Origin: Dudresnaya verticillata
Lineage: Eukaryota
NCBI GenBank assembly: GCA_977862235.1
Contig: OZ374560.1
Coordinates: 2,914,001 to 2,941,251 of the forward strand
Direction: 5' to 3'
Length of the DNA stretch: 27,251 nt
Positions 4,280-27,251 of this stretch are shown piece by piece (the first letter of the stretch is position 1; each line of letters opens with the position of its first letter). The translations under genes were made by a program, and so were the position numbers. The notes beneath the pieces were generated by a model, which had not been told where the DNA came from, did not search any database, and saw nothing but the letters and a program-made list of their open reading frames with translations.

Positions 4280-5861
4280 TTACTGCTTAAACATTGGCTG
4301 TAGGTATCCGTCGCAGAGCTCACATTTTCTACCGAAGACCTCTGAACAATCCCAGTGAGTCTTCTGAAAGCACTCCGGGCATTCCCCGAATCCCGCGTCC
4401 CCTGTTGATGGGGCTTCATTTGCGTACTTACAATTCGTTTCTCTCATGAAGATATGTCTATTGCTGCGATTAACTCTGCTTGGAGTACCGTCGACCCTTT
4501 GTCTCTTCTTGGTATGATCAGTAGGTTCCAGGGAGTGTTGGTCGTACGCACCCAGCAGTTGCAAATCGCTTTCGCTGGTTCGACTCAGACATGGGGAGTT
4601 GCCGCGGTAGCTCATGAGTTAATATTATTGGGGAGGGTTGCACAACTGTTTGCCGTGATGTGGTTCTCCCTGTGGATAGGAACCTCGCGCGAGTTCCTTT
4701 TGAGGCCAGTTATTGAGTCGGAGGAAGACCCTGTGCTCTTACTCTTGGACTAGGTGCAGCTGCTGCTGCAGCGATTCCGATACCATGCGTGTTTTCTGAA
4801 ACTCCAAGCTGCGGGGAAGCTTCCGGATGTAATGACTGAGAGAGTGTTTCTGATTCACTGGATGGGGTGATGGAAGGTGTACGGTGGGAATATCCTGTAC
4901 GACCTTGGTCTAGGCGTACTTTTTTCCGAAGTACAATTGACAATGGCCGTCAACGAAGGTCGTTGTTCGATTCTAGAAGGCGACCGGGACGGCTGAAGTC
5001 CGTTGGAACCATCTGACCGTAGTGGTATCGGATGTTTGTTTATACCAACACCAGCAGGAGGCATGGAATCAGTCGCATTTCTGACTTCGGGCATGCTGCT
5101 CGTTCTCGTAGGCGTGCGAGTATTTTTCTGCTGGTTGCGTCGTGCGGATGCAGTTTCGATCCTACTGTCATGTCGGTTGCTTCTGCTGCCTGCGCGCAAC
5201 ATCTCAGAATTCTCAATGAGCTAGTCCAGTGTATGCTTAGCGAAAGCTTCCTCCATGACGTAGAAAGCTGCCAATATCAATGCAATCCGTTCCCCTTCTT
5301 TCGCGTTCCTCACACATCTGGTGGGAGTAACTGCAGCCGTGCCAGTGTTTGACGTTTGTCCGAAAATCAATGTCCTTCTCATCCACGGAGGTGTGAACGT
5401 TCTGTATCTCATCTGTGTGTCTGAAACTCTACTCTCATCTTTTGCCTTCTTGAAAGCCTGTGAGAAGAATACTTCATACAGCCACATCCTAATTTCCGAG
5501 GACGGACGGATAAACTTCGTCGCTGCAGACGCTGGGATCGCAAGCGTACCTTTTGAATCGCCTCCCGTTCGCTTTTGACCAGGAAACTAGTCTGGGATTG
5601 TGCACTTCTCGTTTGCTGTTTGTATGGAAACCCGCGTAACACCACTTACCTCTGCGTCTTCAGCTAATTGAATTGTAGGATTGACAGAAACATTGCGAGA
5701 GAAGCTGAGATGTACTGACTTTCCAGACTGCGCTCATCTCTGAAAGAGACGGTCCTTGAATACACTACCGTGAACTGACGACTATTTCCCGACGATACCT
5801 CTTTAAGAATATGTATCCGCGTATTCTCATTTTTCTCCTCGGCAGTCTTTGCAGCATCCAC
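4280..5861 (-). pseudogene. Fragmented gene with a low-complexity middle and a C-terminal Cys/His zinc finger (PHD/RING-like spacing), divergent from the KDZ-like transposase
   Basis: Collinear minus-strand ORFs 5861..5664, 5487..5221, 5202..4855, 4943..4710 and 4615..4280 are separated by single stops or frameshifts. A GTAAG donor-like site lies at ~5649. The last ORF ends CPECFQKTHWDCSEVFGRKCELC. Confidence 0.5.
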
Positions 5862-6681: not shown

Positions 6682-6803
6682 GAGATATATTGCATTCCTT
6701 TCCGTGGTGTTGTTTGGTTGTGCCATTTGGATAATAGTCAGTAAAACGCGCCTCGCTCGCGTGCGCCTTTGCGCGTAGAGCAAATCCTGTCATCGAGCTA
6801 GAC

Positions 6804-8428
6804 TTGACTGGGCAAAGTTTTCATCCCCATGCAGTAAATGGGGGCAAGGGAGAGGAGGGGTCATTTCCGTATATTCCGTCAGCTGACGAATCCAGCGACG
6901 CAAACAACGATATATCTGCACCAGAAACAGGTTCCGCGGAAGATGCAGATGCCCAGCCTATGCAGAGTATGCCATGGCATGAGACGGTACCATTTGCAGA
7001 ACCCGCGCAGAAAATACAACGGACATCCAACGGTAGAACGTCAGTTCCTGCGAACAGATTGAACGAGCAAGAGTTGATGAGTAGGGCTATGCGCGAGTGC
7101 ATGCGCTGCTTTTTATGGATTGCTCATAGCCGGAGAGATGGCATTGAGATGCGTTTGCTGCACAATCAGTTCGAAGGTCGGCAAGTTGCAGCAATGGCTG
7201 CTATGAGCGAGGTTAACGTTGTTAATGAGCTCGCAATTGCAGTTCTATGGCAAGTCATGAAGAAGCCCCCTAGACCTGTTTGCGTAACTATTCGCAAGCA
7301 GGGGACCGGAGTTCTCAGCGTGACGTGTTCCTGTGATTCTATGTATGCCAATTCTGTTCCCAACGTCCCTCAAGGTATGCGCTCGTCTATCGCATTCAAA
7401 TGCGATGATACAAAAGTCTGTATGAGCCATGAAGGTCTGTATAGGATATTTCACAGTACGTTTCAGGACCCTGAAAAGGTAGGCAAGTACAAGACAACGG
7501 TTCTGAGTGAGAATGGTCGCCCTCCTTTAATTGAGCTTGTGAGAAGGGCCCAACCTTGGTTGAGAAGCCGCAGTGATAATCTTGGGGCCCTAGCTTGGGC
7601 ATTCTGGATATCATATGATACGAAACGACATCTGTTTGTTCCGATCCTGAAGAAGAGGAGAAAGGATTTCCGTTGTTCCATGTGTAGAGGTTCCTCGGAG
7701 CGAAGAGCTTCATGTAACCATGAAAGAACTTGCAAGTCTTCTGCTGGTGTTTCTGAAACTGTTTCTGAAAATCCTTCTACAATGGCAACCTCCGGTACAC
7801 CGGCTAGTCGTCTTCCATCTGCCACAAATGCCGATGACATGAAGTACGCCGGGACTAATACAATCCAACCGCTTCTTCCTTGTGAAGGAGAACGGAAAGC
7901 CATGGAAAGACTGGCCAAAAAGATACGTTTGCGTGATGAGGATACCATTTGCAGACACTGCGACCTAACAGTAACAAATCCGTTTTTGTCTACAGACAGG
8001 TCAGCCTTCATACTTTGGCGAGGGGAAGGGTTGTGGTTTTCTTCGGAGATTGGAAGTGTCCCATGCTAGCTTGCAGGAAATGGAACTACTACACGGGTGC
8101 CTGGGATGCTATCTTCCCATTCCGACCGGACTCAGCATTCACTACATCATTTCTCTACACAATGGTGGATGGAACTGCTCGGCAAGGGGTAGCATTGCGC
8201 GGTTCCTACTCAATTATGAAGTCTCTGTATCGTGGAATGTTGGACGAAGCTCCTCCCTTCCCTTTGAAGTGTGCGTTTGAAGAGGCTTCAGCAGCGAGAG
8301 AACGCGTCAATGAAGCATTTAGATTGTTTCTGAAAACACTTGATTTAGATGATGATGAGTTCACCAGTGAAATATTTTCTTGCTCAGAATGCGAGGTACC
8401 CTTGACTGAAGGCGACCGGCGGACCTTG
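6804..8428 (+). pseudogene. 5' half of a Cys-cluster (SWIM/CxC-like) KDZ/Zisupton-like transposase
   Basis: ORFs 6804..8069 and 7949..8479 are joined by a frameshift near 7970. Motifs: VTCSCD, FRCSMC…CNH, ICRHC…LHT…WKCPMLAC…YTGAWDAIF…FTTSFL, FSCSEC. The reading frame is cut by the TIR element at 8429. Confidence 0.6.
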
Positions 8429-9422
8429 AACACTAATTTCGCCGGCTACAGAATTTCCAAAACAGAACAGAATTTTTGAGGGTCCTTGAATCCCGGCGTT
8501 CGATAGCGCGTTGGAAAGGGGGCGCTACCCTGAGAATAGTGGTGCCAACAGATCGGAGCAAACGCAAATAGTTTCGGAGTTATGCACTCCGGCATATGGG
8601 CCCCCCCGGGGTCGAAAGTTCCCGAAAGGTGTGATTTTTCCGAAAAGTTCCAATTAAAAATTCTCCAGAAATTGATTCTGCCCCGTCCCGCCGCCCGCGC
8701 CCGCGCCCCCGACCGCACACCGCATTCTGGCGACTTCCCGCCGCATTCCGACGCGCTCGGACTTGGCTTCCCACCGCATTCCGACGCGCGCTCGGCCACC
8801 TCCTCACTTCCGACAGCCACTCCCACCATCACCCTTTCTGGTGCTGCTACTGGCCCACACATTCTGCATTCCGGCGCGTGCGCACGCGCTCTGCTTCTGC
8901 CTTGCGCGTAATGAGCCGCGCTTCCCCACCCCCTCCCAGACCCGTAGTGCCGCTCCCCGCCCCAGTCCGGACTGTGGCCGCACTCTGTCTCACGCTCCCT
9001 GCCGTTCACCCATACCTCGCCGTCACCCTTCCCCGCTCACCGCGCCCGGCCGCATTCTGACACGTCCACATCAAGTTGCCGCATTCGGGCGCACGGTCAG
9101 CCCCTCCCAGCAGTCCCCCGACACGCCTCCTCACCCTTCCCCGCGCTCCTGCGCACCGCGCCCGGCCGCATTCTGACACGTTCACATCAAGTCGCCGCAT
9201 TCGGGCGCATGGTCAGCCCCGCCCAGCAGTCCCCCGACACGCCTCCCTCACCCCTACCCCGCTCCCGTGCGGCACGGCCACCCGCTTTCTGACCCGTCCT
9301 CACAACTGGACTCAGTACCCGCCCGACCGGGTACTCTACCAGGTAGCTCAGCCGCTTGCGCACCCGCGGTTCGGACTTAGCTTGTGGCGTAAACGGGCGC
9401 TACAGGCGTCGAATGGCCTTGC
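8429..9422 (+). repeat. Left terminal inverted repeat (~1 kb)
   Basis: Collinear inverted match to 22962-23957 with scattered substitutions. ORF-track translations 8763+/23622- and 8582+/23803- are near-identical. Confidence 0.95.
9023..9262 (+). repeat. Tandem duplication (~117-bp unit) within the TIR
   Basis: CCGCGCCCGGCCGCATTCTGACACG…ACATCAAGT…CCGCATTCGGGCGCA…GGTCAGCCCC…CCCAGCAGTCCCCCGACACGCCTCC occurs twice. It is mirrored at ~23120-23360. Confidence 0.9.
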
Positions 9423-10092
9423 ATTTCTCGTGTGCTGCATCAACCTGAGAGTATAATTTACTGGTTGTAGCTGTTTCTCGTATCAAGAGCCGGCATACCT
9501 AACTAACAACGGCGATTGTCTGATTCTCTTCTGGACGAGCTGCGGTAGACGTCTCTTCGTAAGAGCTTCGAATTCGACCATTACGGTCGCGACGCCGACA
9601 GTACCAGTCCATGGCTGCTTAGTCGCTGAGTATATGGATGCCTTGTACTTTCCGTCCCAAGCACCCTTACCGTCATACGCCTCGTACCATCTTATATACA
9701 GATCAGTAGCCTTTCCCGTAGCGTCCTGCAGAACATCTAGAATCTGTCCAACCCAAAATGGGCATCGTGCGGTGGCGTTCTCCCTCACAACGGCAACGAA
9801 GTAGTTCTTCGTGTACTGCAGGTCTGAAGGGGGGTCACAGTCTCCTCCTCACCGTCATCCCCTTCCGGTACGTACTCCAGCGCCACTCTTCCGCTGTACT
9901 TTCCCCTTGTCTCAAATATGTGTCCCATATCCCAATGAAACGTTTCCAGCCTATCTCTGTACACGTGGTCCCGCAATTCCTGCAGCTCCCTCATCTTTCC
10001 CGTGTCATACACACGTGTCTCTTCAGAACGAAACCTGTCGTTGACTTCCTTCAAATCTGGTGGCGATTTGACCACTGTTGCTGGAGTCTTGC

Positions 10093-11828
10093 TGTCGTGC
10101 AAACGTCGTATCGAAGACGGAGAACGCCTCCGGGCCGATCGGGAGCCCGGTGGTTAGCCGCTAGTAGCGAACTGGGTAGAGCGGGTAGAACACGCCTAGG
10201 GCGGACTGTAAACACCCAGGGCGAGCGGACGAGGGGGCAAGGAAACCCAAAAGGAAACACGTTAGCAACGAGTTGAAACGTGGAAACACGGATGTGTGGT
10301 GCAAGGGGAGGCGAGCCCTTTTTCGCTGAAAGCGGGCAGACTAAATACGTCGACCGACGGAGAAACCGCCACCGGCGCTCACCACCGCCGTTGGCGCGCG
10401 AACACGTCATCGACGGCTCATTGGGGCGCGCGCGCACACTGTGCGCCGCGCGCCACGCGGGCACTGTACGGTGATGGCCCGACGTGGCGCCCCGGGGCAC
10501 TGTAGCACGGATCCGGATGCGATCCGGATCCGGCATCCAGATTGGCTATCTAGATCGCCTAAGCTGTAAGGTATGCGCCTGTAAGGCTGCGGGTATCAGC
10601 ATTGCTGGCCCGATCCGGATGGGATCAGGATCGGACAAGTACCAGATTAGATCTAAGACGCACGCTCTACAGTGCGCGCGCACGCGCGGCTGTAAGGCAC
10701 ACGCGTCCACGTGTACGTGTAAGCACCCACACAGGGGATTGTACGACGATCTATCAGACGCGCGGCTGCATGCGACGCGTGATCTGTCAGACGCGCCTCG
10801 GGACGACACGTGTCCCGAGTTCCCGCGCTACACGCACGCCGCCGCGCCGCCGTACTATACTTAGGTAAGCCGTCCCAGACGTCACAGTAAACACCCGGGC
10901 GAGCCGGCCTTGGTCCAGACTTCCCCGTTCCGCACGCGCGCATTCTACCGCTGTGTACGGCTAAGCGTCTACCTCCCGTGCTTCCACGTCTACCATCGCC
11001 CTTGACGTGTTCCCCTTTCTCTTTCTCTTTTCCTTCCTTTCTGCCTCGGGCGTTTACAGTCCGCCCAAGGCGTGCCCCTTTTGCTCTACCACCAAGTCGC
11101 CCACGGCGGGTCTACCTACCGCCGAGGGCGCAGCTACCCACCGAGCCCCGAACTGCTCGGCGGTCTATCGTCACTGGACGTTTTGCACCACAGGATGGGT
11201 AGACACTTATGCTTCCGAGCAGCGGTAGGGTGCGCGCTGACGCGGAGGGGAAGTCTAGACTCAAACCGGCTTGCCGGGGCTTTACTGTTACGTCCTGGAC
11301 GAGGTGCCTAAGTAGTACTATAGCGCCGCGGTGCAGCGGCTGCATGACGTAGTGCGCGGGATCCCGGGACGCGTGTCGCGTGGAGGTGTGTCTGACACGT
11401 CCCGGGACAATGCAGCCGCTGTGCGCTGGTGCGTGCGTCTCACAGAGGCGTGCTCGCACGGTGCTGTAAGCGATCCGGATTCGGATCGCGATTGACACGT
11501 ATTACAGCGCGTTTCCCTTACAGTGGATCCCGATGTCCGATCCGGATGTCGGATCCGGATTCGATCGGGATCCGGGCCAATCCGACAGTCGACTCCCTTA
11601 CACCTCGTTGATCTCGATGCATCATCCGGATCCGCTCTGCAGCGTTGCGCCGTACAGTGCGTCGGGCGTGCGCTGCGCTGGGTGGCGGCGCCCGCGCGTC
11701 CGTAGGCCAATCGTCGATGACGTGTTCGCGCCAACGGCGAATGAGCCGTTTCAGGCGACCGTCCGTCGGTCGACGAGGTTATCGGCGCCCATGGCGAGGA
11801 AATAAAAGCCGGTCCCCCGTGCGCCACA
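10093..11828 (-). mobile_element. Solo LTR (~833 bp of its own sequence) inserted in the transposase and split by a second solo LTR
   Basis: Begins TGTCGTGCA and ends TGCGCCACA. The 5-bp TSD is CTTGC (10088-10092 and 11829-11833). Its two parts are a diverged inverted homolog of 10295-11192. Confidence 0.9.
10295..11192 (+). mobile_element. Solo LTR (898 bp) nested in a related LTR
   Basis: Perfect 10-bp terminal inverted repeat TGTGGTGCAA…TTGCACCACA. The 5-bp TSD is GGATG (10290-10294 and 11193-11197). A TATA-like sequence lies at ~10853 and a CT-rich tract at ~11010-11045. Confidence 0.93.
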
Positions 11829-14739
11829 CTTGCCAGGGTCAGGAGGGGATAGTATGAACCCCTTATGCTCTCCTCCTGTCTGCAACGGAACCCAGTCATC
11901 CGCGCATGTCATTCTCAATTGACAGCCTGTCACGAAAGCTGCAACAGATTCTGCCTCTTCCGTCGCAGCTGGACCCACACGGTGGAATCTGAAATAGCGA
12001 TAGGTCGTGAATGCCTCAATATTACCAATGCATCCTTCCTGCCGACACAGGCCTGAGAAATTCGCAATTTGAAGCATGCGACTGACAACTGGTTCTGGAC
12101 TGTACGACTGCCGAAGCTCTTCCATCAATTCAGTCATTGTGACTGCGTCCCGAACTTTAAGCCGGCGTGCCGTTCACGAAAAGGCCTGATCTATATCTGT
12201 GTGAGTGTGCCCGACGGGCAGGAAAGACACGAAGACCTCTTGGAACACACCCCATGCAACGAGACTCTCCAGTTATGAGAACAAAAAGGTATTTTTGTTC
12301 TCTCTCGAACAGTTGTCTACTTGTAGAAATAAAGTCCCTTGTAGCTCTCCTCTGGACTGTTTGTCCGAAAGAGTTCTGTGCAACGCCTCGATAATGTGGT
12401 TCGCGCCGGTCTCGAACTCACCGGTCATTGTGTACAAGTGCAGACGCTTCTCAGCCCTGTGTTCAAGCACCCCAATAAGTTTCGCTTTCATGGCATGCCC
12501 AATGCTGGATTTGGACGACACCACAAAATGGGGAAGTCCAAATGCGGACTGATCAGCACCATCCACTATGAGGGAGCAATACTCTTGCGGCAATAGTATC
12601 GCCTTTTCACATTTTTCTGATATTCACGTCTCTCTGCCTGTATGAATTTCAAGTGAATGTTGCACCGCTCATGCAGGTGTTCAGTGCCTGCTCCAGAGGT
12701 CCCTGCCTGAGCAAGTCGCTCGCGAATGAGTTCGCATTCGCTGCACTTTGCAAATCGGTGTGTCTTTCGCACCTTAATGCGGGAGCAACTGTGTTTCCAT
12801 ACAAAGTAAAAGTAACTCTGACACGGAATATCCCTGTTTCTGTACAGCCTGGTGTGGTCCAATTTGAAGATGTCGTACACAACTGATTTCTGAAAGTAGG
12901 GGAGGTGTGACTCCCCATTATCGGGCATTGGTTCAGCAGTGCTGTCTGTAAGACGTTCAAGGAAGCAAATGATAGTATCTTGCTGATGGGATGAGGTATC
13001 ACGCCTCGCATTGTTTGGGAGTTGCAGCTTCCGGGACTGCATTGTGCCTTTTACAGACGTCTGTAACTCGCGGGAGAATCCAAAGGCCTGCTCCAAAAAG
13101 TTGTAACAGACAGGCTGGCGGTTGAAAAGTATTTCATCTTCCTCGTGTCCAACAGATTGCATAGATACGTTCGCCTTGCTTCTACGTCCATTCCGGCAAT
13201 TCTGCGCGCCTCCGCCTTTACGTACACTTGCTCCACACTTTGGGAGCACTTGTTCCCGATGCAGCATCTCATTGACTGCGTGTTTGCGCGTTCCAGGTCT
13301 TTGAACAGGTGCCTACGTCTCTTCTGAAGACTTCCTCTCCCACTGAATGTCCGCTGCTTTCTCTTCCTGTAAGTATACTTTCGCTTCGTCCTGACCTGCA
13401 CCTTCTGAAAAGGGTCATACGCTTCGTCATCACTTTCCGACACGTGTCGTACGGCGTCCGCATCATCATGGCTGGCCTCCCTCAAATGCTCTCGCGGTTC
13501 ACTCATTTCCTCACTGCTCGGAGCATTGCAAGGCGGGGGTGTTGTTCGAATTGACCGCGCTGCGGCATCCGCTTGCGGCCCCGAACTTTGTTGGAGGGGT
13601 GATGTTGGCCTGGTCGTGTCAACTGGTGTCATCTGCTGGGGCGATGCGGTAGGGGCCACTGCTGCGGCAGTGTTTTCTGCAGTTGACGTCGGGGGGCAAT
13701 TGCTCAGTATTGGGTAAATTCTTCGACGAACTATGCCCTTTCGTGGAGAGTACAACCGTCTCTGGCACAACGGCGCGATTTCTCGATTGCCGAGCTCCTG
13801 AATGTAGTTCACATCCCATGCATGAAAACCCCCACCCATCTCCCCAAGTGTGTGCGGAACTGAGTCCGTCGTCGTGTACTTGTATTTGTACTGAAGTTTC
13901 TCATACGGTTGCATGATTTGTGCTCGGTAAACCACAACCAGCTTCTCCCCTTTTTTCTGACTGGGAGACAATTTGTGGCCATGGAGGGTGACACAATACC
14001 TGCCAGACTGGTCTGTGTCCTCTTTTTTCCCCGGTCTCTTGACAATAGCAGTGCCGACCATTTCCCTGTCATACAGAAGAGCAACATGCCCTTCGTCGCT
14101 TGATTTGCCTCCTCCTTTCTTTGCTCCATTTTCTCGCTCAGCGCAATCCGTAGTTGCCGGGCTCATTTCCATGTCGTTCAAAATGTCCTGCGACAGTATC
14201 TGCACACAGCTTGTGAGAGTGCCACTCGTTCTGTCTTCCCTTCACGCTCTCAGCAGAGCGCCCACTTTTCAGTCTGTTAAGGCACCTGGCCAACCTGGCG
14301 GGGAGGCGCAGCCCTTCGCAGCGAAACGCTTGCGCATTAAATACCCTCTGTGATACCGCGGCGCGCCGCCTGTTGCCTGCTCTTGAGGCTTCACACCCGT
14401 GGAGCGGCACGAGTGGCTTCACGAGGTGCATCTGGGTTATTCTGCAACCCAGATTCTGTTTGTGATCAGATTCTGGTTCTGCACTTGGCCAATTACATTT
14501 CAGGTACAACTTTCCGCATGCATGCGGAGCCACACAAGCTGCAGCTTGTGAGAGGCGGACACATACAGCTGACGGTCACTCTGGGGTGAACTGGCAGTTG
14601 CAGTGCGCCTACATCACGAGTTGATATCGTCTGCAGACGCTTCCAAGGAAGTCGCGGCACAGCACGAATGGAAATGCTGCTGCTACAGTTGTCTCAATGC
14701 CTTAAGGTACTGCAGTAGCATGAGGGTTTCAGGATCGGC

Positions 14740-14900
14740 GAAGCACACGACAGGGCTCAGGACAAAGACGATGGACATGTGGCGCCAGTAGAGTGGCGTC
14801 GGAAACTTCAGCAAACAAATGAACCTGATCATCAAGGAACCCCCGAAAACGAAGTTTTTTGTTGCAACGGACACATTTGAAGTGCGCATTCATTTTCAGA
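14740..14900 (+). pseudogene. Possible captured glycosyltransferase (fucosyltransferase-like) gene fragment
   Basis: The frame reads TMDMWRQ*SGVGNFSKQMNLIIKEPPKTKFFVATDTFEV. F(Y/F)(L/V)ATD preceded by F…M…P resembles GT-B fucosyltransferase-like proteins. The match is short and degenerate. Confidence 0.3.
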
Positions 14901-15780
14901 CCGGCAGTTGTGCCTCGGTACAGCTTGACCAAGTCGATGCACGCTAGCTGTGATCGCGTCTGGGACTTTGCCGCTGTTGGCAAGCGGCTCTCCGACAGGC
15001 TGCCATTGTAGGGAATAATCCCGAACGGGGCGAGAGCGCTAGGCGTAACAAGGATCAAGAGTGTGAAGACAGGGCAAGTCGACAGCGATTACTTGCTAAA
15101 TATTGATAGCGAAGCAAGTGGCATCCTTTGACTGTCGGTACGATCACGATAATGGATATGTTTGGGGGCGCTCAGCGAGGCTTAAGTGGTGAAAATAGTC
15201 GCAACAGCACAAGGCAGAAAGTCGTACAGATGTAGTCAGACATTAACAAACAAGTGACCTCACCTCTCGTGAAGAATATCTTTGAACGCGAGAGTAGGAA
15301 CAGATGAGTTGAGACTTTGAATCAGATTCGACAATACGGCATTTCTGATGGGGAATCTGAATGTGGATATCCGCTCACGGCAGTGATGCAGCTTTTATCG
15401 TTTTCTACAGACTGTATTCAAACTATTAACGGCAAAGCATCACGTCGAGCTTTTAACCAGCTCGAAGCGCTGCGCTATCATAAGGCGAAGAAACTGAACT
15501 CGCGCGCAGTGTTGTTTGTTTTTATTAAGTCGTTGCCTGAGTAGCATCACGTTTGAACAAAAGTAGGCAATACCACAATCTAAATGAAGCAGCGCACCAT
15601 TCCACAAACGTGGTTACCATATTTATCTATAGATTCGTGAATTTGTTGCTCTGTCAAAGAGTTATCTTCACCTCTAGAGACAACAGGTAGAAGAAAGAGG
15701 GCTGGACAGCGGAAATTAATTGCAGGTGAAGGATGGCACAACAGGTGAACACGTGAGACTAACCCACCACCTGCTACAGC

Positions 15781-15999
15781 TGATGGTTTGTTGTGTTGGT
15801 TTGGAATGGATGGCGAATGTAACAGATTCTGTGCTTCCTACACTCTGACCGAGCGACTTCAACATCCAATTATACGCCTACCAAACAACCATGATGGTTT
15901 GTTGTGTTGGTTTGGAATGGATGGCGAATGTAACAGATTCTGTGCTTCCTACACTCTGGCCAAGCGAAGTCAAAGTCCAATTATACGCCTACCAAACAA
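15781..15999. repeat. Tandem duplication, 111-bp period, 2 copies
   Basis: TGATGGTTTGTTGTGTTGGTTTGGAATGGATGGCGAATGTAACAGATTCTGTGCTTCCTACACTCTG occurs identically at 15781 and 15892. The second halves of the two copies differ slightly. Confidence 0.95.
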
Positions 16000-16258
16000 T
16001 AAAAAGAGTCAACAGCACTACCGCATCCTGCGAAGAGGAGGGAACGTGACACTGGACGAAGCTGGTGCGTTGGGTAAAACTGTTCAAAGAAAGGTAAGGG
16101 ATCGTGGTTCCGACAACAACCGCAATTCGATCCTTACAAGCCGAACCACGGAAATCAGAACGGCCTTGACTCCCTCTGCAAGACAATACACGCTCTCCTT
16201 TTTGTAATTGACCTTGCGTTCCTAGCAAGCTGCCTGCACCATCATTTGCGGCACTTTC

Positions 16259-17800
16259 TATACTATGCCACAGCATTGCGGAAACTGTTCGCGCAGGACA
16301 TGGGCGATGTGGTGAAGTGAAAGGCACACCTGTAAGGAGAGCTGATCAAGCAATCCCAATAAGGAGTGATCTCACACGGCACCGGGGTGGTAGAGCTTAG
16401 TTCGTAGACCGAAGGGAGTACCTCGAGCGGCAACACCTGTAAGGAGTAAAGGGACGCACCAGACAAGGGGGACCGTACAGTGCCAGGAAAGCTACACAGG
16501 GACGGAGGTAAGAGGAATCCGTGCACGGGGCTGGCGAGGGGAAACCGTAAAGGACTATGAGGGTAAGGCTTAGGGTAAGTCACTTTGCCCAGGGTTGCGT
16601 ACCCGTTTACTGTAGGACTCGCGGTGGCCACCCATTAATATACTGGGAGATACGCCCCGCGGTCCGGTCCGTGTGGGCCAGACCCCAATGGGTCTGGTCC
16701 ACCAGGTGGGTCCGGCCCTACTGGTCCCGGTCACCGTTGCGGACATGCTCGGCATTCTTATTGGCCGGCTGACACTACGTACTGTACAGCATGATTATAA
16801 TTACCTAATTACAAATAAATCAACTACTTGACTCCTATTCGTGGTGCGCGCAGACTCCAGCAAGGTATACAGTGCTACTGTGTCGCTGCACTCCGTTTCG
16901 GCTTTTGGTGCCAGCTCACCACTGCGCCGGGCGCGGGTCGGCTCAACCGTCGTCCGCACTCCGAAACGGCCGCTTCACCACAGGCGAGATACAGCGCCTC
17001 GCCCTCGTTCATGCCATCAATGAGAGTAAATTGCTCGCCTCCTGTTTCAAGGCCAAGCGTGAAGCGTCAGCCGCCGTTCGCGTCCAGCGAGCACGCAAAC
17101 ACATGCGGCAAGTTTTTGAGGTAGGCCATATCGGCCTGGCGCGACGTCCTTGGTGATAGCGTGTACGCTATTACAACGCGACCCACCAGGAAACGTCTGC
17201 GATGACGATGAGCATCCAGGCGGCCGGGAAGCGGTTGCGGCGGACGACGGACAGGCGAAAGTGTGGCTCCGCGGAGTGGGACATAGCGAAGGGGCGGGCG
17301 GTGGGGTGGGGTGTTGTGGAGCACATCGCGGATGCGGATCACTATGGTCACCTGCGTGGCCAGGTCTGCGGCCGCGGTGGTCGGCACGGGCAAATGGTCA
17401 GGCTGGCGCGCGTCGACCGGGGCGTGGTCGAAGAGCGAGGCGGGCGGGTGCGGGAGTGGGTTGCGCGAGTCTGCGCGGGACTCGTGCAGGAAGGTGTTGA
17501 GCGCTTGCACGTCGGCTTGGCAGTGGTCCACGCGCGCGAGGGAGGAGAAGTGCAGCAGGTGGTGCAGCGCGATAACCTCGACGGCGAAGCGAGGGTGGAG
17601 CTGCGTGTCGACGCGGGCGTTGGCGGGGATTGTTCCGGCGGCGAAGCGGCGCAAGTGGTCGAGCGGGACTTGCAGGCGGGCGGATGCCACGGCGAGGTAC
17701 GTGGGGGTGTCGGCGGCGCGGCGGACGAGGCGCAGCACGGACTGCGGATGAACGAGGCACAGGTGCGACGGGTGCAGGTTTTTGTGCGTGGAACGGGAAG
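16259..17800 (-). pseudogene. Captured host-like gene fragment (GC-rich codons), interrupted by a solo LTR
   Basis: ORF 17924..17067 has a strongly GC3-rich core (~17200-17780). It continues through one TGA and across the LTR: …DANGG*RFTLGLETGGEQFTLIDGMNEGEALYLA|HVLREQFPQCCGIV*. Confidence 0.5.
16308..16982 (+). mobile_element. Solo LTR (675 bp)
   Basis: Perfect 10-bp inverted ends TGTGGTGAAG…CTTCACCACA. The 5-bp TSD is GGCGA (16303-16307 and 16983-16987). An internal TATAA lies at ~16796 and AATAAA at 16814-16819. Confidence 0.92.
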
Positions 17801-18720
17801 ATGAGCAGCAGCAGGAGCGGGAGCAGCGTCGAGGCCAGATAGATTGTGGAGTTTGCTGGCTCTCAGGACCTGTTCCCCAATACTGATATTGCACTTTGGG
17901 CTCCTGCGTTGCCGTGAAGCGCAATATCTGTTCTCATAGCAATGTGACTTGGCTGCATTCAGAAGCTGTAAAGGTGTTGACGGCGGCCCAATGGAAAGAC
18001 CCTTTTACAAGCTTATTCAATATCATTGGACAGAAAATCTATACAGGTTTTTCAGTGCGCAATTTGCCACATCAAAAGAACAGCTATTTGGCCCGGCGCT
18101 CTCGCCCCACCTGTTCCCTGATACTGATATTGCACCCACAGGTGTTGACACCTCCCACCCCCGAGAACCTGTTCCTCGTAAATTGACCGCCGCGCCCCCC
18201 CGCTGGCACGCCGCTGGCAACGGTGTGCCAGTACTCACCGACACCGTGTGTGGCATGCTATTTTACTCGCAGTATCAGCACCTGGCCAGGCTGGCCTCAA
18301 CTTCAAAGCCCGGCCAAGTCGGCTGGGACAGCGAGCAGCATACCCTAATTGACTTTGTTACATCTCGCCCTGCAGGTCTTGTGAAACCTGCATTCTACCA
18401 ATTCCAACTGTACGGCCTGTGCTAAGCATAAGTTCTGATGGAGACTGCCCACACCCAGTGAACAATCCACGTGACCTCCCGTGCCATGTCGGAATTTGCG
18501 GCACATCCATGTCGTACTCTCGCCGTCCGGTGTGTCGAAAGCCCGTATGGTGCCAGTCGAAAACGGCACCCTGCAAACATGAGCCAGGGACGTAAAGAAC
18601 TTCTTGCGGAAGGTTTTCTGAACAGAATCTGGGCAACTCGTCGGACATGCAGTACCCCTTTCCGTACTCTTTCAAGGAGAGCGGTTTTCACGTGCACAGG
18701 GAGTCTTTCTCTCGCACACC

Positions 18721-21700
18721 ATGTCGAAGCGCAAGAAGCTGAGCAGGGGGTCAAGTGAGCCCTTGAGGAAGGAGGATATGGCACAGGCACTGTTTGGAGA
18801 TGTCATGGAGGGGTCTACCAACATTCGAATAGACCCCAGGTCCTGTGTTCCGATGATTGATATAAGGGACATCTCGAGATCCGGTGTTGAGAGGCTCAAG
18901 AAGATTTTTAGGGGTGGTGGGACGAGGAGCGCTAACTGCAACAACGGGTACATTGCCGGTTCTGATGCGCCCATACTGGCTCGCCTAACAGGTCCATTCA
19001 GGAGTTTCATTTTTGAGTTTCTCCGAGCTAAACGGAATGCGGATGGGACAGAGTACACAGAGAAACAGATGAAAGAAGAGGCCTCCAGTCGGTCGGAGTG
19101 GTTCGGTGTTGTTGATGGCATGCATCGACTTATCGCCATTATGGAGCTAATCGATGAAGACCGGGAGACATGGAAGGGGTTTGCTTTGACTGCCACTGTG
19201 CTTAAAGGGGGGCACAACATCCAGATTCTGAAGCAACTGGCTCTTCATCATAACAGAAAGCACGACTCCAGCTTTTTTGTAGAGACCACGTTTTACGATC
19301 AGATATGCGGTCTTAGGAAAGAGGCAGACGGTCTCGAAGCCAGTAATGGGAAGACTCCGACTGCGACGGCAGTTGCCGAAGCATATGATTGATGCAGTCA
19401 CCTATCGAAAAACACTATCAAACAGACAGCGGCAACCGTTCTTCGTCTTGACCGTCGCGTTATTGATGTAATTGGGAAGATAATGAAGGAGGAGGTCCCT
19501 GAACTAGTAACTATGCAACTGTTGACTGCTTCCGGAAAGGCCATAGACTCAAATGTCGCGATGCAGAATCTGGATTGTATAGTATACAGACGCTTCATTC
19601 ACGTCAGTTCCATCAAGTCTTCCAAGGCCTTTATGAATGCAGGCAGCTCTGACAACGGCATTACTGTTCAAATAGCTACTCTGTACAGGCTTCGAGAGGT
19701 GTCAAGGACACACAATTTCAAACCTGCTTCGGCCAAACACACGCAAGAGCAATTCTTGAAAGCTTCAGCCGCCCTTTCCGAGACTGGAAAGTTTGAAGCG
19801 ATGAGGGAGAGGACAGAATGGCCGTCAGGCATGAGTACATTAAGAGAAAACCTGTTACACACTACGAAGCTGGACGTCGAGGTCATCATGAATCGAGGTA
19901 ATGACCGTACACTGTTGAAAACAATAGTTGAGATGTACAGAGAGTGTTGTCCGGAAGAGGCCCCAGTGAAGTTGCAGAAGTACAAAGATCTGCAAACTGT
20001 GATGGATTCGACAGACGTCAGACGTGATGATGCTGTCATGACCCGCCCGGGTTCCAATGAATGTGGAACAAAAGATTCTGACGGTCAACAGAATTTGGAC
20101 TGCACATTGTCACCGCAGGTGGACGCTACCGGAATATCTAATGACGACGAGATTTTAGACTTAGTAACATCAACCAATTCGAAAAGGGAAGAAGGTCGCG
20201 AACCAGCAGAATCTGGACAGGCACCCGTCCAGAACGCAGACCCTAAAGCTGCATGTGCAGCCAAAGACCTTTCTGTACCGGAAAAGAGTCCCACAGACCC
20301 CACTGCATCAACTGTGTCATCAAAGCAGTCTGTTCGCCTCAACATGGGTACTAAGCCTGTGCCGGTGTAGGACGGATCGCTTTCTGTTCCAATAGATTAT
20401 CTTGCGGAAATGAAACTGACATGCTTCCACATGACATGGCAGAGCTACGACAGTACCGTAAGGAAGGAAGGTGACAAACGATTCGATTTAATCCTCACTG
20501 ATCCACCATACGGTACACCGAAATCGCAGTCTAAGTCGGGGAGGTCATTCGATAAACCTCAGCGAGGAAGACATTAAGAAGATAGTTGAGTTCTCGAGGC
20601 GCGTACTTGTAGCAGGGGGGTGGTCGTTTGTTTTCACGTCATTCCTGAACTTCGGTATATTCCACGATGCTCTGAAGAAGGCACAATTCATGTGCCCAGC
20701 ATACCCATTCTTATTCTCCGAAGACCCCAAGACCATGCAGGAACATCGGGGGAGCGATATGCCCCAGAACTGTGTGGAAATAGCCGTTATGGCGCTTGCC
20801 CCAGGTCAGCATGGCGGAGGGTTCTCGCTCGACCTTAGGAGCGAGTATCACTGCATCCCCTCCCCAGAAAAGCGGAAATTCGTGTGCATGTCCTCTCTAC
20901 CAACACCGAAACACAAGTTGCTACGCCCAGGCACCAAGTCCCCAGTTCTGGTCGAAGAGAAGTCTCCCGAAGTACTTGTGGAGATAATGACAATATTCTG
21001 TCCGGAGGGCGGGTCAGTTCTGGATATGCACAGCGGAACCATGACGACTGGGATTGCAGCTCTCAGAACAGATCGTCGGTGTACACTAATCGAATCACAG
21101 GTGGAAACATTCAAGCTGGGGGCTGAACGTTTGCGTAGGCTTGCCACGGAAGCATATGAAATGAAGACAGGTCGTAAACGTTTGGAATCAAGTGCTCATG
21201 ACGAACTGAATGGTATCGGTGAGGCAGCAAGAGGTAGTGTTGTCAAAACAGATTCTGCTCAACCAACAAACCATTCCGTAACGAGGAAGGGACCTGAAAT
21301 GTCCCATCTGACGACACCGTCCGAGCACGTATTGGATGACCGCGAAGAGAGTATCGAGAAGCACGGCAGGAGTGAAGACATAGTTGTAGGAAGTGTGGAG
21401 CTAAATGAAAAGTGCAGGAGAAGGAAAACACCTGAACCTTGTGCAATGCCCAAGGCCGGAGACAGAGTCACGCTTCTTGCAGATGATAAGGAAGTGGGGG
21501 AGGCCGTGTTGCATCCTGAAAAGACTCCAGGAGGGAACTGTAATGAACGCTTGCACGACCACGATCTGTCAGAATCTGCCAAACCAGGGGAGCATCTTGT
21601 GGTCGTGTACAGTTTGAAGGTCATGGCGGAGTATGAGCTAAGTTCGTATCCGTATATATTCAAGGGACTAGAGGACCCTCCTGCCAATCTCAAGGGCCTA

Positions 21701-21751
21701 AACGGCTTGTTGTTCTCGTGGGACTTTCACAACATGAAGAAGATTGGGTAG
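18721..21751 (+). pseudogene. ParB/Srx-like domain + beta-class amino-DNA methyltransferase (DPPY; N6-adenine or N4-cytosine) fusion, ~1010 codons
   Basis: WFGVVDGMHRLIA (19099-19137) is a ParB-like motif. Also FDLILTDPPYG (DPPY at 20500-20511), RRVLVAGG, and EKSPEVLVEIMTIFCPEGGSVLDMHSGTMTTGIAALRTDRRCTLIE (SAM-binding motif I, 21017-21052). In-frame stops lie at 19390 and 20368, and a frameshift at ~20553. Confidence 0.88.
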
Positions 21752-22250
21752 GAATTATAGTCAGTACAGTACTATTGTCATAGGCCGAATTGAACATTTC
21801 TCGAGCATCCGTATTCTGAACATGTCTTTGCGTCTTGCTTCCGCCATGATCCATGAATTCGACGTCGTTCAGGCACCATTTACTCGAATAACGCCAGTGC
21901 TTCCACGTGCCGTACTATGAACGCGGGGGTTATATTTGGTCCACCAAACAAAATCTGTCACGGAAGGCTGTCGCGAGTGTGGCACATGTACCGTACTGCT
22001 GCAGCTGTTGGCAACGTTGCGGCATATTGGCAGTAAGTGATTGATCGACTACGTACCGGAGTGCGCCCAGGGCTGTCTCCAACGCATATGAAATGGACAC
22101 CCGTGAGATCGTGGAAAGATGGACTATGTATTGTTCAGGAACGCAGTGATCCTGTCGCAGTTAAAGGCCTCGGCCATTTCGGAAAGAGAGCTGAGATGAA
22201 ACGAAGTGTTCGTTCACCACCATAATCTGCTGTGACCAGAATAACGCTGT

Positions 22251-22781
22251 ATGGAGACCATGGATGACTTGATTCTGGATGTGGAAAAGCTGTACAACGC
22301 CGTTAAACGTCGGATGGGGGAAGATCTTAGTCGTGAGGCACGAAATTGGACGCCCCAAAGCCCTAGCAGTGACGACGACATTCTGGACAACCACAATGAC
22401 CTGGATCGTGCCCAAATGGCTTTGGAATCATCACAGCAATTTTACGCAGACAAGACGATGATGGAGCATTCCCACCATCAGAAAGCTTTGGAAAAGTTGT
22501 ACAGGTTGTTGCTGAAGAAAATCTTTCTCGTGGGAAGGGGCAAGTACGTACACGGTGCAGCCCATGCTGTAGACTTTGCGATCGTCGAAACGCTGCACAG
22601 GGGCGGAGAGAACGCATATCAACTGGACCGCTACACACGTCTGCTTTGCACCAAATTCTACATGTCCAACAGCCGCGCAATGAAACCGGAGGTGAGGATG
22701 TGCATCATGAGGAGCCTGCACAATGAACTGTCTAGTTGTGAAGGGCTGTATATGCGGAAGCATGATAGCAGCGATTGCTAA
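22251..22781 (+). CDS. Orphan ORF (176 aa) next to the right TIR; possible accessory protein of the element
   Basis: ATG-initiated and uninterrupted, with protein-like helical composition. No family recognised. Confidence 0.4.
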   Translation: METMDDLILDVEKLYNAVKRRMGEDLSREARNWTPQSPSSDDDILDNHNDLDRAQMALESSQQFYADKTMMEHSHHQKALEKLYRLLLKKIFLVGRGKYVHGAAHAVDFAIVETLHRGGENAYQLDRYTRLLCTKFYMSNSRAMKPEVRMCIMRSLHNELSSCEGLYMRKHDSSDC

Positions 22782-22961
22782 CTTTAGAGATAGTAAAGTG
22801 GTGGCCTTCTCCCATGAGCACAGCAATGCGCTTCATTCCATTTGGCGGTCTACAATCGGGGATGTGCCCCATTGAAGTATGGCATGGTCCTCAGCTGCGG
22901 CGCAATAAACGCGGCGCAGACAACGGAATGCAATGGGTTTAGGCTGGCATTGTGCAGAACC

Positions 22962-23957
22962 GCAAGGGAAATCGACGCCTGTAACGTCAGTCTACGCCAC
23001 AAGTTAAGTCCGAACCGCGGGTGCGAAAGTGGCTAAGCTACCTGGTAGTGTACCAGGTCGGACGGGTAGTGGGCCCAGTTGTGAGGACGGGTCAGAACGC
23101 GGGTGGCCGTGCCGCACGGGGGCGGGGTAGGGGTGAGGGAGGCGTGTCGGGGGACAGCTGGGCGGGGCTGAACATGCGTCAGAATGCGGGCACTTGATGA
23201 GGACGTGTCAGAATGCGGCTGGGCGCGGTGCGCAGGAGCGCGGGGAAGGGTGAGGGAGGCGTATCGGGGGACTGCTGGGCGGGGCTGATCGTGCGCCAGA
23301 ATGTGGGCACTTGATGTGGACGTGTCAGAATGCGGCCGGGCGCGGTGAGCGGGGAAGGGTGACGGCGAGGTGTCGGTGAACGGCAGGGAGTGTGAGACAG
23401 AGTGCGGTCACAGTCTGGATTGGGGCGGGGAGCGGCACTACGGGTCTGGGAGGGGGTGGAGAAGCGCGGCTCATTACGCGCAAGGCAGAAGCAGAGCGCG
23501 TGCGCACGCGCCGGAATGCGGAATGTGTGCGCCAGTAGCAGCACCAGGAAGGGTGATAGTGGGAGTGGCTGTCGGACGTGAGGAGGTGGCCGAGCGCGCG
23601 TCGGAATGCGGTGGGAAGCCACGTCCGAGCGCGTCGGAATACGGCGGGAAGTCGCCAGAATGCGGTGTGCGGTCGGGGGCGGGGGCGCGGGCGGCGGGAC
23701 GGGGCAGAATCAATTTCTGGAGAATTTTTAATTGGAACTTTTCGGAAAAATCACAAATTTCGGGAACTTTCGACCCCGGGGGGGCCCATATGCCGGAGCG
23801 CATAACTCCGAAACTATTTGCGTTTGCTCCGATCTGTTTGCACCACTAATCTCAGGGTAGCGCTCCCTTTCCAACGCGCTATTGAACGCCGGGATTCAAG
23901 GACCCTCAAAAAATTCTGTTCTATTTTGGAAATTCTGTAGCCGGCGAAATTTGTGTT
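22962..23957 (-). repeat. Right terminal inverted repeat (~1 kb)
   Basis: Inverted copy of 8429-9422. Confidence 0.95.
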
Positions 23958-23961
23958 CTTG

Positions 23962-25031
23962 GGACTCAGTTCCGATATTGATATCTCTGCACTCAAGAGG
24001 CATTTCAGTTCAGAGGAATCGTCCTGGACGGAACATCGGCTGGAATTGTGGCCAAGCTCCCGCAGTACGACCGTCTGAGTACTGGCATCCCCAAACCGAA
24101 ACGATCTTTGAAGTCATCTCTGCTGAGAAGATCTGATCAGGTTAAGGCCCTGAAGTTATTTATGAAGCTAGCAAGGTTTGCTCTGTCCAAGATGGAGAAC
24201 GTGGTTTCGTTAAAACTGAGTGGACAACGCGGCTTGACAGAATCCGGACTTGATATCTTACGGAATTGTGTGGACAGGGATGTATGCTACCGCCTCAGCT
24301 CTACCTCCAGAGGTAGCGGCGGTCATAACGAAGAATGCGTGCAGAAGCAGGTAGGTTGTGAGCTGGAGAACAAAGAGTTGTCTGAAACACTAAGAGTATT
24401 ATTCAAGTTGCGATTGAACAGAATCGATACAGCTGATATCGAAGCGGGAGCGGAGTCGGACGAATCCGATTTGCTCGACTTAATCACTGACTCCGAAAAT
24501 AGCTGTTCTGATGGGAGCAGAGATTTAATCTCGTCGCAACACTGGGTCGCAGAGTTACGTCACGGTTTCCATGTCGAACAAGACCTCTCTCTGCTGGATG
24601 CCACGCTGGACGTTTTGCAATACTGCACGTTAGAGAACTGCGCGCCAACTTTTCTTGCCCCAATACACACTGATGGCCCTGGTATTGCACCTACCAGTGC
24701 AACAGCGAGAGGGAGAGAGAGATTCGAGTTCTCTGCGGAAGGGCAACCAAGTATGAACTTAACTTATACGGTCCGAAGTTCTATTAGGGCCCATAAGGAG
24801 CTCTGCGAAGCCCTCGTAGCTGCAGTATCTCTAGAGCACCGCCGCGTACGGCAGCCAAATGAGACCCCAAGAAGACCACAAAGACCTGTCGGATTGCGTA
24901 GAAACTGGCCGAACGTAGAACGGACCTGCGCGCCGGTAGCAAGCGTGGTAGAGCGGGAGCGCGCAGACGAAGTCATGGCCAGTATCCGTGATGAGGACGT
25001 AAAATGGCCAAGTCGGGGGTTCAGTTGCTAA
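23962..25031 (+). pseudogene. 3' continuation of the KDZ-like transposase, truncated
   Basis: Joining at the TSD and removing one TTCAG of the duplication at 24004-24013 gives FSCSECEVPLTEGDRRTLGLSSDIDISALKRHFRGIVLDGTSAGIVAKLP…, in frame with ORF 24048..25031. FxCxxC…IVLDGT is the expected first catalytic-Asp context. The downstream catalytic motifs are absent. Confidence 0.6.
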
Positions 25032-25947: not shown

Positions 25948-27251
25948 GGTTTTAGGGGTTTAGGGGTTTTAGGGGTTTAGGGGTTTTAGGGGTTTAGGGG
26001 TTTAGGGGTTTAGGGGTTTAGGGGTTTAGGGGTTTAGGGGTTTTAGGGGTTTAGGGGTTTAGGGGTTTAGGGGTTTAGGGGTTTTAGGGGTTTAGGGGTT
26101 TAGGGGTTTAGGGGTTTAGGGGTTTAGGGGTTTAGGGGTTTTAGGGGTTTAGGGGTTTAGGGGTTTAGGGGTTTAGGGGTTTAGGGGTTTAGGGGTTTTA
26201 GGGGTTTTAGGGTTTAGGGGTTTAGGGGTTTAGGGGTTTAGGGGTTTAGGGGTTTAGGGGTTTAGGGGTTTAGGGGTTTAGGGGTTTAGGGGTTTAGGGG
26301 TTTAGGGGTTTAGGGGTTTAGGGGTTTAGGGGTTTTAGGGGTTTAGGGGTTTAGGGGTTTAGGGGTTTAGGGGTTTAGGGGTTTAGGGGTTTAGGGGTTT
26401 AGGGGTTTAGGGGTTTTAGGGGTTTTAGGGGTTTAGGGGTTTAGGGGTTTAGGGGTTTAGGGGTTTAGGGGTTTAGGGGTTTAGGGGTTTAGGGGTTTAG
26501 GGGTTTAGGGGTTTAGGGGTTTAGGGGTTTAGGGGTTTAGGGGTTTAGGGGTTTAGGGGTTTAGGGGTTTAGGGGTTTAGGGGTTTAGGGGTTTAGGGGT
26601 TTAGGGGTTTAGGGGTTTAGGGGTTTAGGGGTTTAGGGGTTTAGGGGTTTAGGGGTTTAGGGGTTTAGGGGTTTAGGGGTTTAGGGGTTTAGGGGTTTAG
26701 GGGTTTAGGGGTTTAGGGGTTTAGGGGTTTAGGGGTTTAGGGGTTTAGGGGTTTAGGGGTTTAGGGGTTTAGGGGTTTAGGGGTTTAGGGGTTTAGGGGT
26801 TTAGGGGTTTAGGGGTTTAGGGGTTTAGGGGTTTAGGGGTTTAGGGGTTTAGGGGTTTAGGGGTTTAGGGGTTTAGGGGTTTAGGGGTTTAGGGGTTTAG
26901 GGGTTTAGGGGTTTAGGGGTTTAGGGGGTTTAGGGGTTTTAGGGTTTTAGGGGTTTAGGGGTTTAGGGGTTTAGGGGTTTAGGGGTTTAGGGGTTTAGGG
27001 GTTTAGGGGTTTAGGGGTTTTAGGGGTTTAGGGGTTTAGGGGTTTAGGGGTTTAGGGGTTTTAGGGGTTTAGGGGTTTAGGGGTTTAGGGGTTTTAGGGG
27101 TTTAGGGGTTTAGGGGTTTAGGGGTTTAGGGGTTTTAGGGTTTTTAGGGGTTTTAGGGGTTTAGGGGTTTAGGGGTTTTAGGGGTTTTAGGGGTTTAGGG
27201 TTTTAGGGGGTTTAGGGGTTTAGGGTTTTAGGTTTTAGTTTAGGGGTTTAG
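25948..27251 (+). repeat. Telomere, (TTTAGGGG)n with TTTTAGGGG variants
   Basis: About 1.3 kb of tandem 8-mer with the G-rich strand running 5'->3' to the end of the sequence. Confidence 0.98.

Follow-up and report, generated by a model that had tools for sequence, protein, structure and literature searches.

A decayed Sola-type transposon with a divergent gene for a predicted ParB-like amino-methyltransferase in Dudresnaya verticillata

Sola-superfamily transposons code for a DDD transposase, generate 4-bp target-site duplications (TSDs) and end in terminal inverted repeats (TIRs) of 11–1124 bp, and some members exceed 15 kb (available text of PMC10741241). The closest described relative in architecture is Sola1-1_Ec32 of Ectocarpus, an element of 21.5 kb with a 4-bp TSD and AACCG-CGGTT termini. 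According to the accessible parts of its description, it carries on the opposite strand a gene encoding ParB and an N4/N6 methyltransferase, for which self-modification was proposed (PMC12477816). Excerpts of a work on red algae likewise describe PAG2 and PAG3, which bring a transposon-borne N6-adenine methylase and ParB-like domains (bioRxiv 10.1101/2025.02.11.637652). The present analysis concerns a stretch of 27,251 nucleotides from Dudresnaya verticillata (contig OZ374560.1 of assembly GCA_977862235.1, positions 2,914,001 to 2,941,251), here called the window. Positions 8429-23957 of the window are occupied by a 15.5-kb element with a decayed transposase gene and a divergent, likewise decayed accessory gene. 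The preferred reading, to which a probability of about 45% is given, is that this is a Sola-type transposon and that the enzyme of its clade bound its own element and wrote N6-methyladenine (6mA). The ends and the two genes lie as follows.

8425..8428, plus strand: left TSD, CTTG, from the junction sequence
8429..9428, plus strand: left TIR of 1000 bp, starting AACAC, with eight copies of GCATTCBGRCRC and a 116-bp tandem duplication
9483..14172, minus strand: decayed Sola-type gene for a predicted DDD transposase, with a DUF7869 core, three frameshifts, two stops and one nested insertion
18721..21751, plus strand: decayed gene of about 1010 codons for a predicted ParB-fold, beta-class amino-methyltransferase
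22956..23957, minus strand: right TIR, ending GTGTT, with eight copies of the 12-bp motif
23958..23961, plus strand: right TSD, CTTG, from the junction sequence

A reading of this DNA from its letters alone (hereafter the sequence-only reading) had proposed a complete element with 1-kb TIRs and a CTTG TSD, and this description holds. Over 1000 aligned sites the two TIRs have 61 differences (94% identity), their size falls inside the published Sola range, and the insertion junctions read GAC-CTTG|AACAC on the left and GTGTT|CTTG-GGA on the right. CTTG flanks both ends of the single copy examined. The junctions could also be read as a 2-bp TT duplication with a TIR one base longer, which leaves an identical empty site. 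The 4-bp reading is favoured because the coincidence that it needs is smaller (1/4 vs 1/16) and because the AAC ends are like those of Sola1-1_Ec32. The 12-bp motif GCATTCBGRCRC has 17 matches in the window where 1.4 are expected, and 16 of them lie inside the TIRs. The number of independent occurrences is lower than 16, since the TIRs copy each other and the 116-bp tandem duplication supplies two of the eight.

Work with the transposase alignment has shown that the two genes belong together. Among the 80 metagenome loci compared, out of 104, three (L002, L003 and L007) have the accessory gene head-to-head with the transposase, at 32–37% transposase identity to the query. In the 11 loci with at least 2 kb of upstream sequence, the accessory gene is present in 3/3 of the close clade and in 0/8 of the distant ones; L040, with about 1.9 kb upstream, has no accessory match. 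In L003 both open reading frames (ORFs) are open, on a contig of 8182 bp. The contigs of the paired relatives may lack their TIRs. As indirect evidence, methyltransferase and transposase matches fall on contigs of equal size in four of 17 long contigs (0.16 expected), and for five of the six members of the P0005 cluster there are P0036 cluster members of the same contig size and source. Limited lists or other carrier transposons may be why nine of these 17 contigs with a methyltransferase were matched by none. One further size match, at 4334, was dropped as chance, being too short for both genes. The pairing of accessory gene and transposase is conserved.

This conservation bears on one rival explanation, in which a plain Sola element acquired a methyltransferase gene just once, by capture or as a nested insertion. 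The element does contain at least one nested insertion, which would suit such an event. The same divergent pair in three loci at 32–37% transposase identity already refutes it, however, and the equal-sized contig matches and a domain common to both genes speak against it as well, so that it is given a negligible probability. This comparison is among protein relatives rather than among copies with the same TIRs. A scan with the methyltransferase alignment retrieved no locus from metagenome, viral or prokaryote collections, as a pattern scan that misses the distant relatives in L002, L003 and L007.

In the window, the accessory gene retains the motif order that the sequence-only reading had described for a divergent gene of some 1000 codons: DGMHR at 19114-19128 (its DGxHR), DPPY at 20500-20511 and DMHSGT, the S-adenosylmethionine motif, at 21023-21040. 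Stops at 19390 and 20368 and a frameshift near 20555 interrupt it. Three regions can be delimited.

18787..19389, plus strand: predicted ParB/sulfiredoxin-fold domain including DGMHR (19114-19128), placed from the model of the relative P0008
20410..21140, plus strand: predicted amino-methyltransferase domain, motif IV DPPY ahead of motif I DMHSGT
21458..21745, plus strand: C-terminal 95-residue beta domain, common to the transposase N-terminus

The profile matches foreseen for the element were borne out for DUF7869 and PF01555. PF01555 matches the broken accessory piece at E 6.5e-5, below the curated cut-off. Ten homologues were found at first, and the seven that are full length all exceed that cut-off (7/7); among further homologues, 39/41 have a PF01555 match at E <= 0.01. 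Pfam ParB_N found no match in 48 homologues and DndB matched two of them weakly, so that the ParB call rests on predicted fold. No SET or 2-oxoglutarate (2OG) oxygenase family was present in the 48 homologues scanned or in the fold matches.

Fold comparison was made with the model of P0008, an intact relative (predicted local distance difference test, pLDDT, 84.9). Its residues 514-770 superimpose on CcrM with Z 23.7 (root-mean-square deviation, rmsd, 3.2 over 229 residues), and M.BceJIV, MboIIa and N4CMT are also similar; DNA methylases overall score Z 19–24, and Foldseek gives E 1.8e-11. The protein is thus predicted to have a Rossmann-type fold of the CcrM/RsrI/PvuII kind and to be a beta-class amino-methyltransferase, as had been expected of the DPPY region. 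The best fold matches for the P0008 N-terminus are chains of the ParB/Srx family: 5k5d (Z 8.6, rmsd 4.2, 215 aligned), PadC (6ryk; Z 8.1, rmsd 2.6, 97 aligned), KorB (Z 6.5) and sulfiredoxin (Z 6.2), with SerK and SbnI also matched. An Atlas search from the accessory protein led to ParB_N and DndB clusters. The predicted fusion of a ParB-like head to a beta-class enzyme is therefore retained from the sequence-only reading.

These scores bear on another rival, action of the enzyme in trans, with host chromatin, competing elements or RNA as its target instead of its own element. METTL3 (Z 14) and other RNA methylases are among the beta-class folds, and similar accessory genes move among several transposon superfamilies in red algae, according to excerpts of bioRxiv 10.1101/2025.02.11.637652. 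RNA methylases reach only Z 11–15 against the same model, however, and the tight linkage to one transposase clade suits a benefit in cis. Action in trans is accordingly held to be quite improbable.

The partner gene runs from about 14172 to 9483 on the minus strand and matches DUF7869 at E 3.9e-16. The motifs DGADQ, DNCSRENKN and GHTHTDIDQ can be read in it, and relatives number 175 matches, the best with 63% identity over the core. Both of its stops lie in the core, and mapping of intact relatives gives three frameshifts. The further parts of the gene are these.

9513..9833, minus strand: predicted BAH-like beta-barrel at the transposase C-terminus, mapping to residues 866-974 of P0031
10093..11828, no strand assigned: nested insertion of 1736 bp with TG...CA ends and a 5-bp CTTGC duplication, seen as a gap in the transposase
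12191..12563, minus strand: catalytic core containing the residues predicted as the DDD triad (DGADQ at about 12563, DNC at about 12317 and DID at about 12197-12191)
13800..14094, minus strand: N-terminal 95-residue beta domain, homologous to the methyltransferase C-terminal domain

The aspartates D535, D538, D658 and D660 of the relative P0031 are invariant across 109 alignment rows, and its model (pLDDT 75.8) resembles the Mos1 and retroviral integrase cores at Z 8.3–8.7. Foldseek matches of P0031 were weak, none at E <= 0.001. The transposase alignment had no match in viral or prokaryote collections and no sequence relative with a solved structure. The protein is predicted to be a transposase of the RNase H-fold type with a DDD triad, in line with the Sola-like transposase recognized earlier.

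The last 100 residues of the P0031 model match BAH structures with probability 0.99–1.0 at E 0.03–0.04 (Z 6.0–6.7), and Pfam BAH was weak in 5/48 transposase relatives, all below cut-off. There is thus moderate support for a predicted BAH-like, chromatin-reading tail at the end of the transposase. By eye, the distant DUF7869 loci L055 (11384-11920) and L066 (7311-8156) have a BAH-like end stretch, FWIAE...VRW. As these loci appear to share it, the tail may have arisen before the accessory gene.

A further link between the partners is the 95-residue beta domain, whose copies at the methyltransferase C-terminus and the transposase N-terminus are homologous (E 1e-12). Of 57 long methyltransferases 19 contain it, as do 12 of 120 transposases. 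Within linked pairs it lies in both genes in the window, in the methyltransferase only in P0004, P0005 and P0189, mainly in the transposase in P0031 and in neither gene in L003. Such a distribution would fit a targeting module from which either partner could profit at the same DNA. The domain gave no usable Atlas match and no Pfam match, nor did the whole-model fold search, in which that part was hardly probed, yield a row for it. It may resemble the Tnp1/En/Spm-like domain of plant CACTA elements.

The copy in the window is dead, as had been claimed: with both genes broken, it is incapable of acting in cis. Any function would be that of intact relatives, which had been expected to exist and were found as full-length homologues; P0004, P0005 and P0008 are intact and bear DPPY. 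The methylated base would be adenine, favoured because of DPPY and because the nearest folds are CcrM and M.BceJIV; DPPY is typical of bacterial N6A enzymes and SPPY of most N4C enzymes (available text of PMC8885841). The ParB-fold and helical region would be a nucleotide-gated DNA-loading head, and the target of the methyltransferase would be its own element. The mark would keep the shared spacer and the ends open for transcription and transposition; 6mA has been tied to active transcription in three model systems, according to the excerpts available of PMC4738411. The BAH-like tail would steer the transposase to chromatin.

A more elaborate version is conceivable, in which a nucleotide-gated ParB-like clamp loads on the transposon and forms one complex with the BAH-bearing transposase through the traded domain. 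No eukaryotic cut-and-paste element would have been shown before this one to write its own 6mA, and lineages of the family would repeatedly have turned the writer into a dead reader with the partnership kept. Taken as a whole, this version is doubtful.

The state of motif IV across the family complicates the self-methylation reading, as does the 95-residue domain. At 50% identity the exhaustive protein search produced 261 clusters, the best 150 of them being examined; the long set comprises 57 proteins of at least 700 residues, 50 from those 150 clusters and seven others. Motif IV was counted in the 107 homologues, of 157 aligned, that have its strand. The tree was built with FastTree and midpoint-rooted, the window sequence being represented by its N-terminal half. 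In it the clade of the window (7 rows, support 99) has DPPY in 7/7 despite pairwise identities of about 40–57%, and the canonical motif is present in several other clades too.

Several observations weigh against self-methylation or against its supposed benefit. Canonical motif IV, [DNS]PP[YFW], is found in only 29/107 homologues (20/57 long ones) and missing in the other 78. The tree needs six changes of state, at least five of them forced by well-supported branches. L003 has TAIP at the DPPY position with both of its ORFs open, and family members have another residue in place of the final glycine of motif I, typically GT[LFM]. Switches between 6mA and N4-methylcytosine (4mC) have occurred repeatedly in the N6_N4 domain, according to the excerpts available of PMC8885841, which touches the choice of base. 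The only repeated site found is the non-palindromic subterminal motif of the TIRs, which may equally well be a transposase site. Lastly, the TIR differences show little excess of CpG-transition type (9/228 vs 22/772) and therefore no sign of heavy host CpG 5-methylcytosine (5mC) from which to escape. Escape from host 5mC thus finds no support here; the sequence-only reading had named evasion of host silencing as a possible benefit.

The same counts speak for the main rival, namely that the accessory protein is mainly a non-catalytic cofactor of transposition or anti-silencing. Its ParB head and methyltransferase fold would bind, and perhaps flip, element DNA and help to assemble or place the transpososome, with methylation dispensable. 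The 78/107 homologues without canonical motif IV fit this idea, as long ORFs and the ParB-like head (56/57 long homologues) are nevertheless retained; so do a 21-row clade that is wholly degenerate and L003, where a degenerate but open gene accompanies a transposase that is open too. The 95-residue domain, on the methyltransferase, the transposase or both as if acting at one place, also agrees, and DIRS1 elements provide a precedent in having inactive methyltransferase domains (accessible parts of PMC4738411). Against it stand the unbroken DPPY of the window clade at such divergence and the canonical motifs of the other clades, and activity may persist in the variants DPPF, EPP- and DPFQ. As the age of the open reading frames in the database is not given, copies in decay may account for some of the degenerate rows. 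A cofactor role is accordingly thought rather unlikely, though a substantial share of the probability goes to it.

Yet another possibility is that methylated ends and spacer restrain the element, with transposition only on hemimethylated DNA after replication. Dam methylation restrains IS10 and Tn5 in this manner. CcrM and other orphan methylases with a regulatory role have the nearest folds, and the divergent layout provides one shared control region, both of which would suit a brake. On the other side, repeated loss of motif IV would remove the brake, and this explanation is deemed improbable. Self-methylation in support of the element remains the preferred reading; the intact DPPY-bearing relatives, together with naturally degenerate ones, make it testable. 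Should the enzyme indeed mark its own element, eukaryotes would have an epigenetic writer encoded by a transposon, and 6mA or 4mC of algal genomes could stem from it.

The remaining features of the element lie in and beyond the spacer between the genes.

14173..18720, no strand assigned: spacer of 4.5 kb separating the start codons of the two genes, roughly double the length in L002 and L003
15781..15999: tandem repeat in the spacer, two copies of a 108-bp unit, 94% identical
17200..17800: GC-rich block in the spacer
22245..22781, plus strand: ORF of 178 residues between the methyltransferase gene and the right TIR

The element had been called giant, and its 15.5 kb stands; Sola elements above 15 kb were already known, however, and at least 1.7 kb is the nested insertion at 10093-11828, which had been overlooked. 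This insertion has extensive internal inverted repeats (GGATCCGG-rich) and appears to resemble a solo long terminal repeat. Because the spacers of the relatives L002 and L003 measure about 2 kb vs 4.5 kb here, part of the size is attributable to later insertion, and the spacer possibly holds more nested DNA. On its minus strand at 17067-17933 there is a GC-rich frame of 288 residues without a Pfam match, and near it a block at 16300-16800; frame and block may be fragments of further nested elements. The 178-residue ORF had no Pfam match and no counterpart among the 80 metagenome loci, and it could be either a remnant or a third gene of the element. In L002, three short palindromes occur in the spacer at 2366-2506, possible binding sites of the ParB-fold protein.

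The window ends in a telomeric array (25950-27251), mainly of TTTAGGGG (133 units) with TTTTAGGGG variants (17), which places the element about 2 kb from the chromosome end. The repeat TTTAGGGG is similar to the TTTTTAGGGG given for Bostrychia in the accessible part of bioRxiv 10.1101/2025.02.11.637652, a likeness that together with the literature would point to a red algal host; no paper connecting TTTAGGGG with red algae was found in the literature searched. A long cysteine-rich reading frame (CxxC...VLDGT; 6738-8428 and 23958-25031) is split by the element. It is taken here, as an assumption, to resemble a KDZ-type transposase. Because this frame had no Pfam match of weight and no longer homologue was found, protein continuity does not confirm the empty site. 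A further 51 ORFs of the window gave no Pfam match of weight and no host marker.

Compared with known systems, the accessory gene is like PAG2 and PAG3 in being mobile between transposon families and in its proposed modification of its own element. In the PAG genes, methylase is fused to SET and ParB to 2OG oxygenase in separate genes, fusions without a counterpart in the 48 homologues scanned, and the carriers are EnSpm/Plavaka, Mutator, Zisupton or Fanzor elements instead of a Sola-type one. The name Sola is absent from the available main text of that Bostrychia preprint; its supplements, which list other carrier families, may include it. The available portions of a giant-transposon review (PMC6431247) mention neither Sola nor ParB, and those of PMC4455052 and PMC5751038 yielded no Sola sequence signature. 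Transposon-borne ParB-methyltransferases are in print from annotation alone, and no functional test was found in a literature scope outside which lay subscription journals, Repbase Reports and bioRxiv supplements.

Among methyltransferases, CcrM, M.BceJIV and M1.HpyAVI share with the accessory enzyme the permuted motif order IV-I, PF01555 and the predicted fold; they differ in that the enzyme here has a predicted ParB-fold head, a C-terminal beta domain and a transposon location. The rotifer N4CMT, which has SPPY and a chromodomain and is encoded by the host, marks transposons (excerpts of PMC8885841), whereas the DPPY enzyme here is itself transposon-borne. A ParB-type domain joined or adjacent to an N6A methyltransferase is also seen in phage ParB-terminase loci and in the chlorophyte Dam fused to a ParB helix-turn-helix (accessible parts of PMC4738411). 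The chlorophyte-type Dam is a group-2 enzyme with that helix-turn-helix, in contrast to the permuted beta class and ParB/Srx N-terminal fold predicted here, and such phage ParB-terminase or ParB-Dam systems are a plausible source of the ParB-methyltransferase module, PHROG 67 being matched at E 1.8e-29.

Unlike typical Sola elements, the one in the window has a second large gene, which none of the eight distant DUF7869 loci has. Sola1-1_Ec32 is like it in being giant and in having a 4-bp TSD and an opposite-strand ParB-methyltransferase gene of about 1000–1100 residues, and the first three bases of AACAC...GTGTT agree with those of AACCG...CGGTT. Its TIR is 282 bp and its TSD biased to end in A, as against 1000 bp, CTTG and 15.5 kb here, and its host, the brown alga Ectocarpus, likely belongs to another lineage (available text of PMC12477816). 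By architecture, compared by description, the element would belong to the group typified by Sola1-1_Ec32. The novelty that the sequence-only reading had attached to the pairing falls away, as PMC12477816 reports it with the same self-modification hypothesis. The motif IV loss, the 95-residue domain and the BAH-like tail go unmentioned in the available literature passages, no search having been aimed at them. The element is a further case of a pairing and a self-modification idea already in print for Ectocarpus, to which it adds the pattern of motif IV loss, the domain shared by both proteins, the predicted BAH-like tail and the attribution of at least 1.7 kb of its size to a nested insertion.

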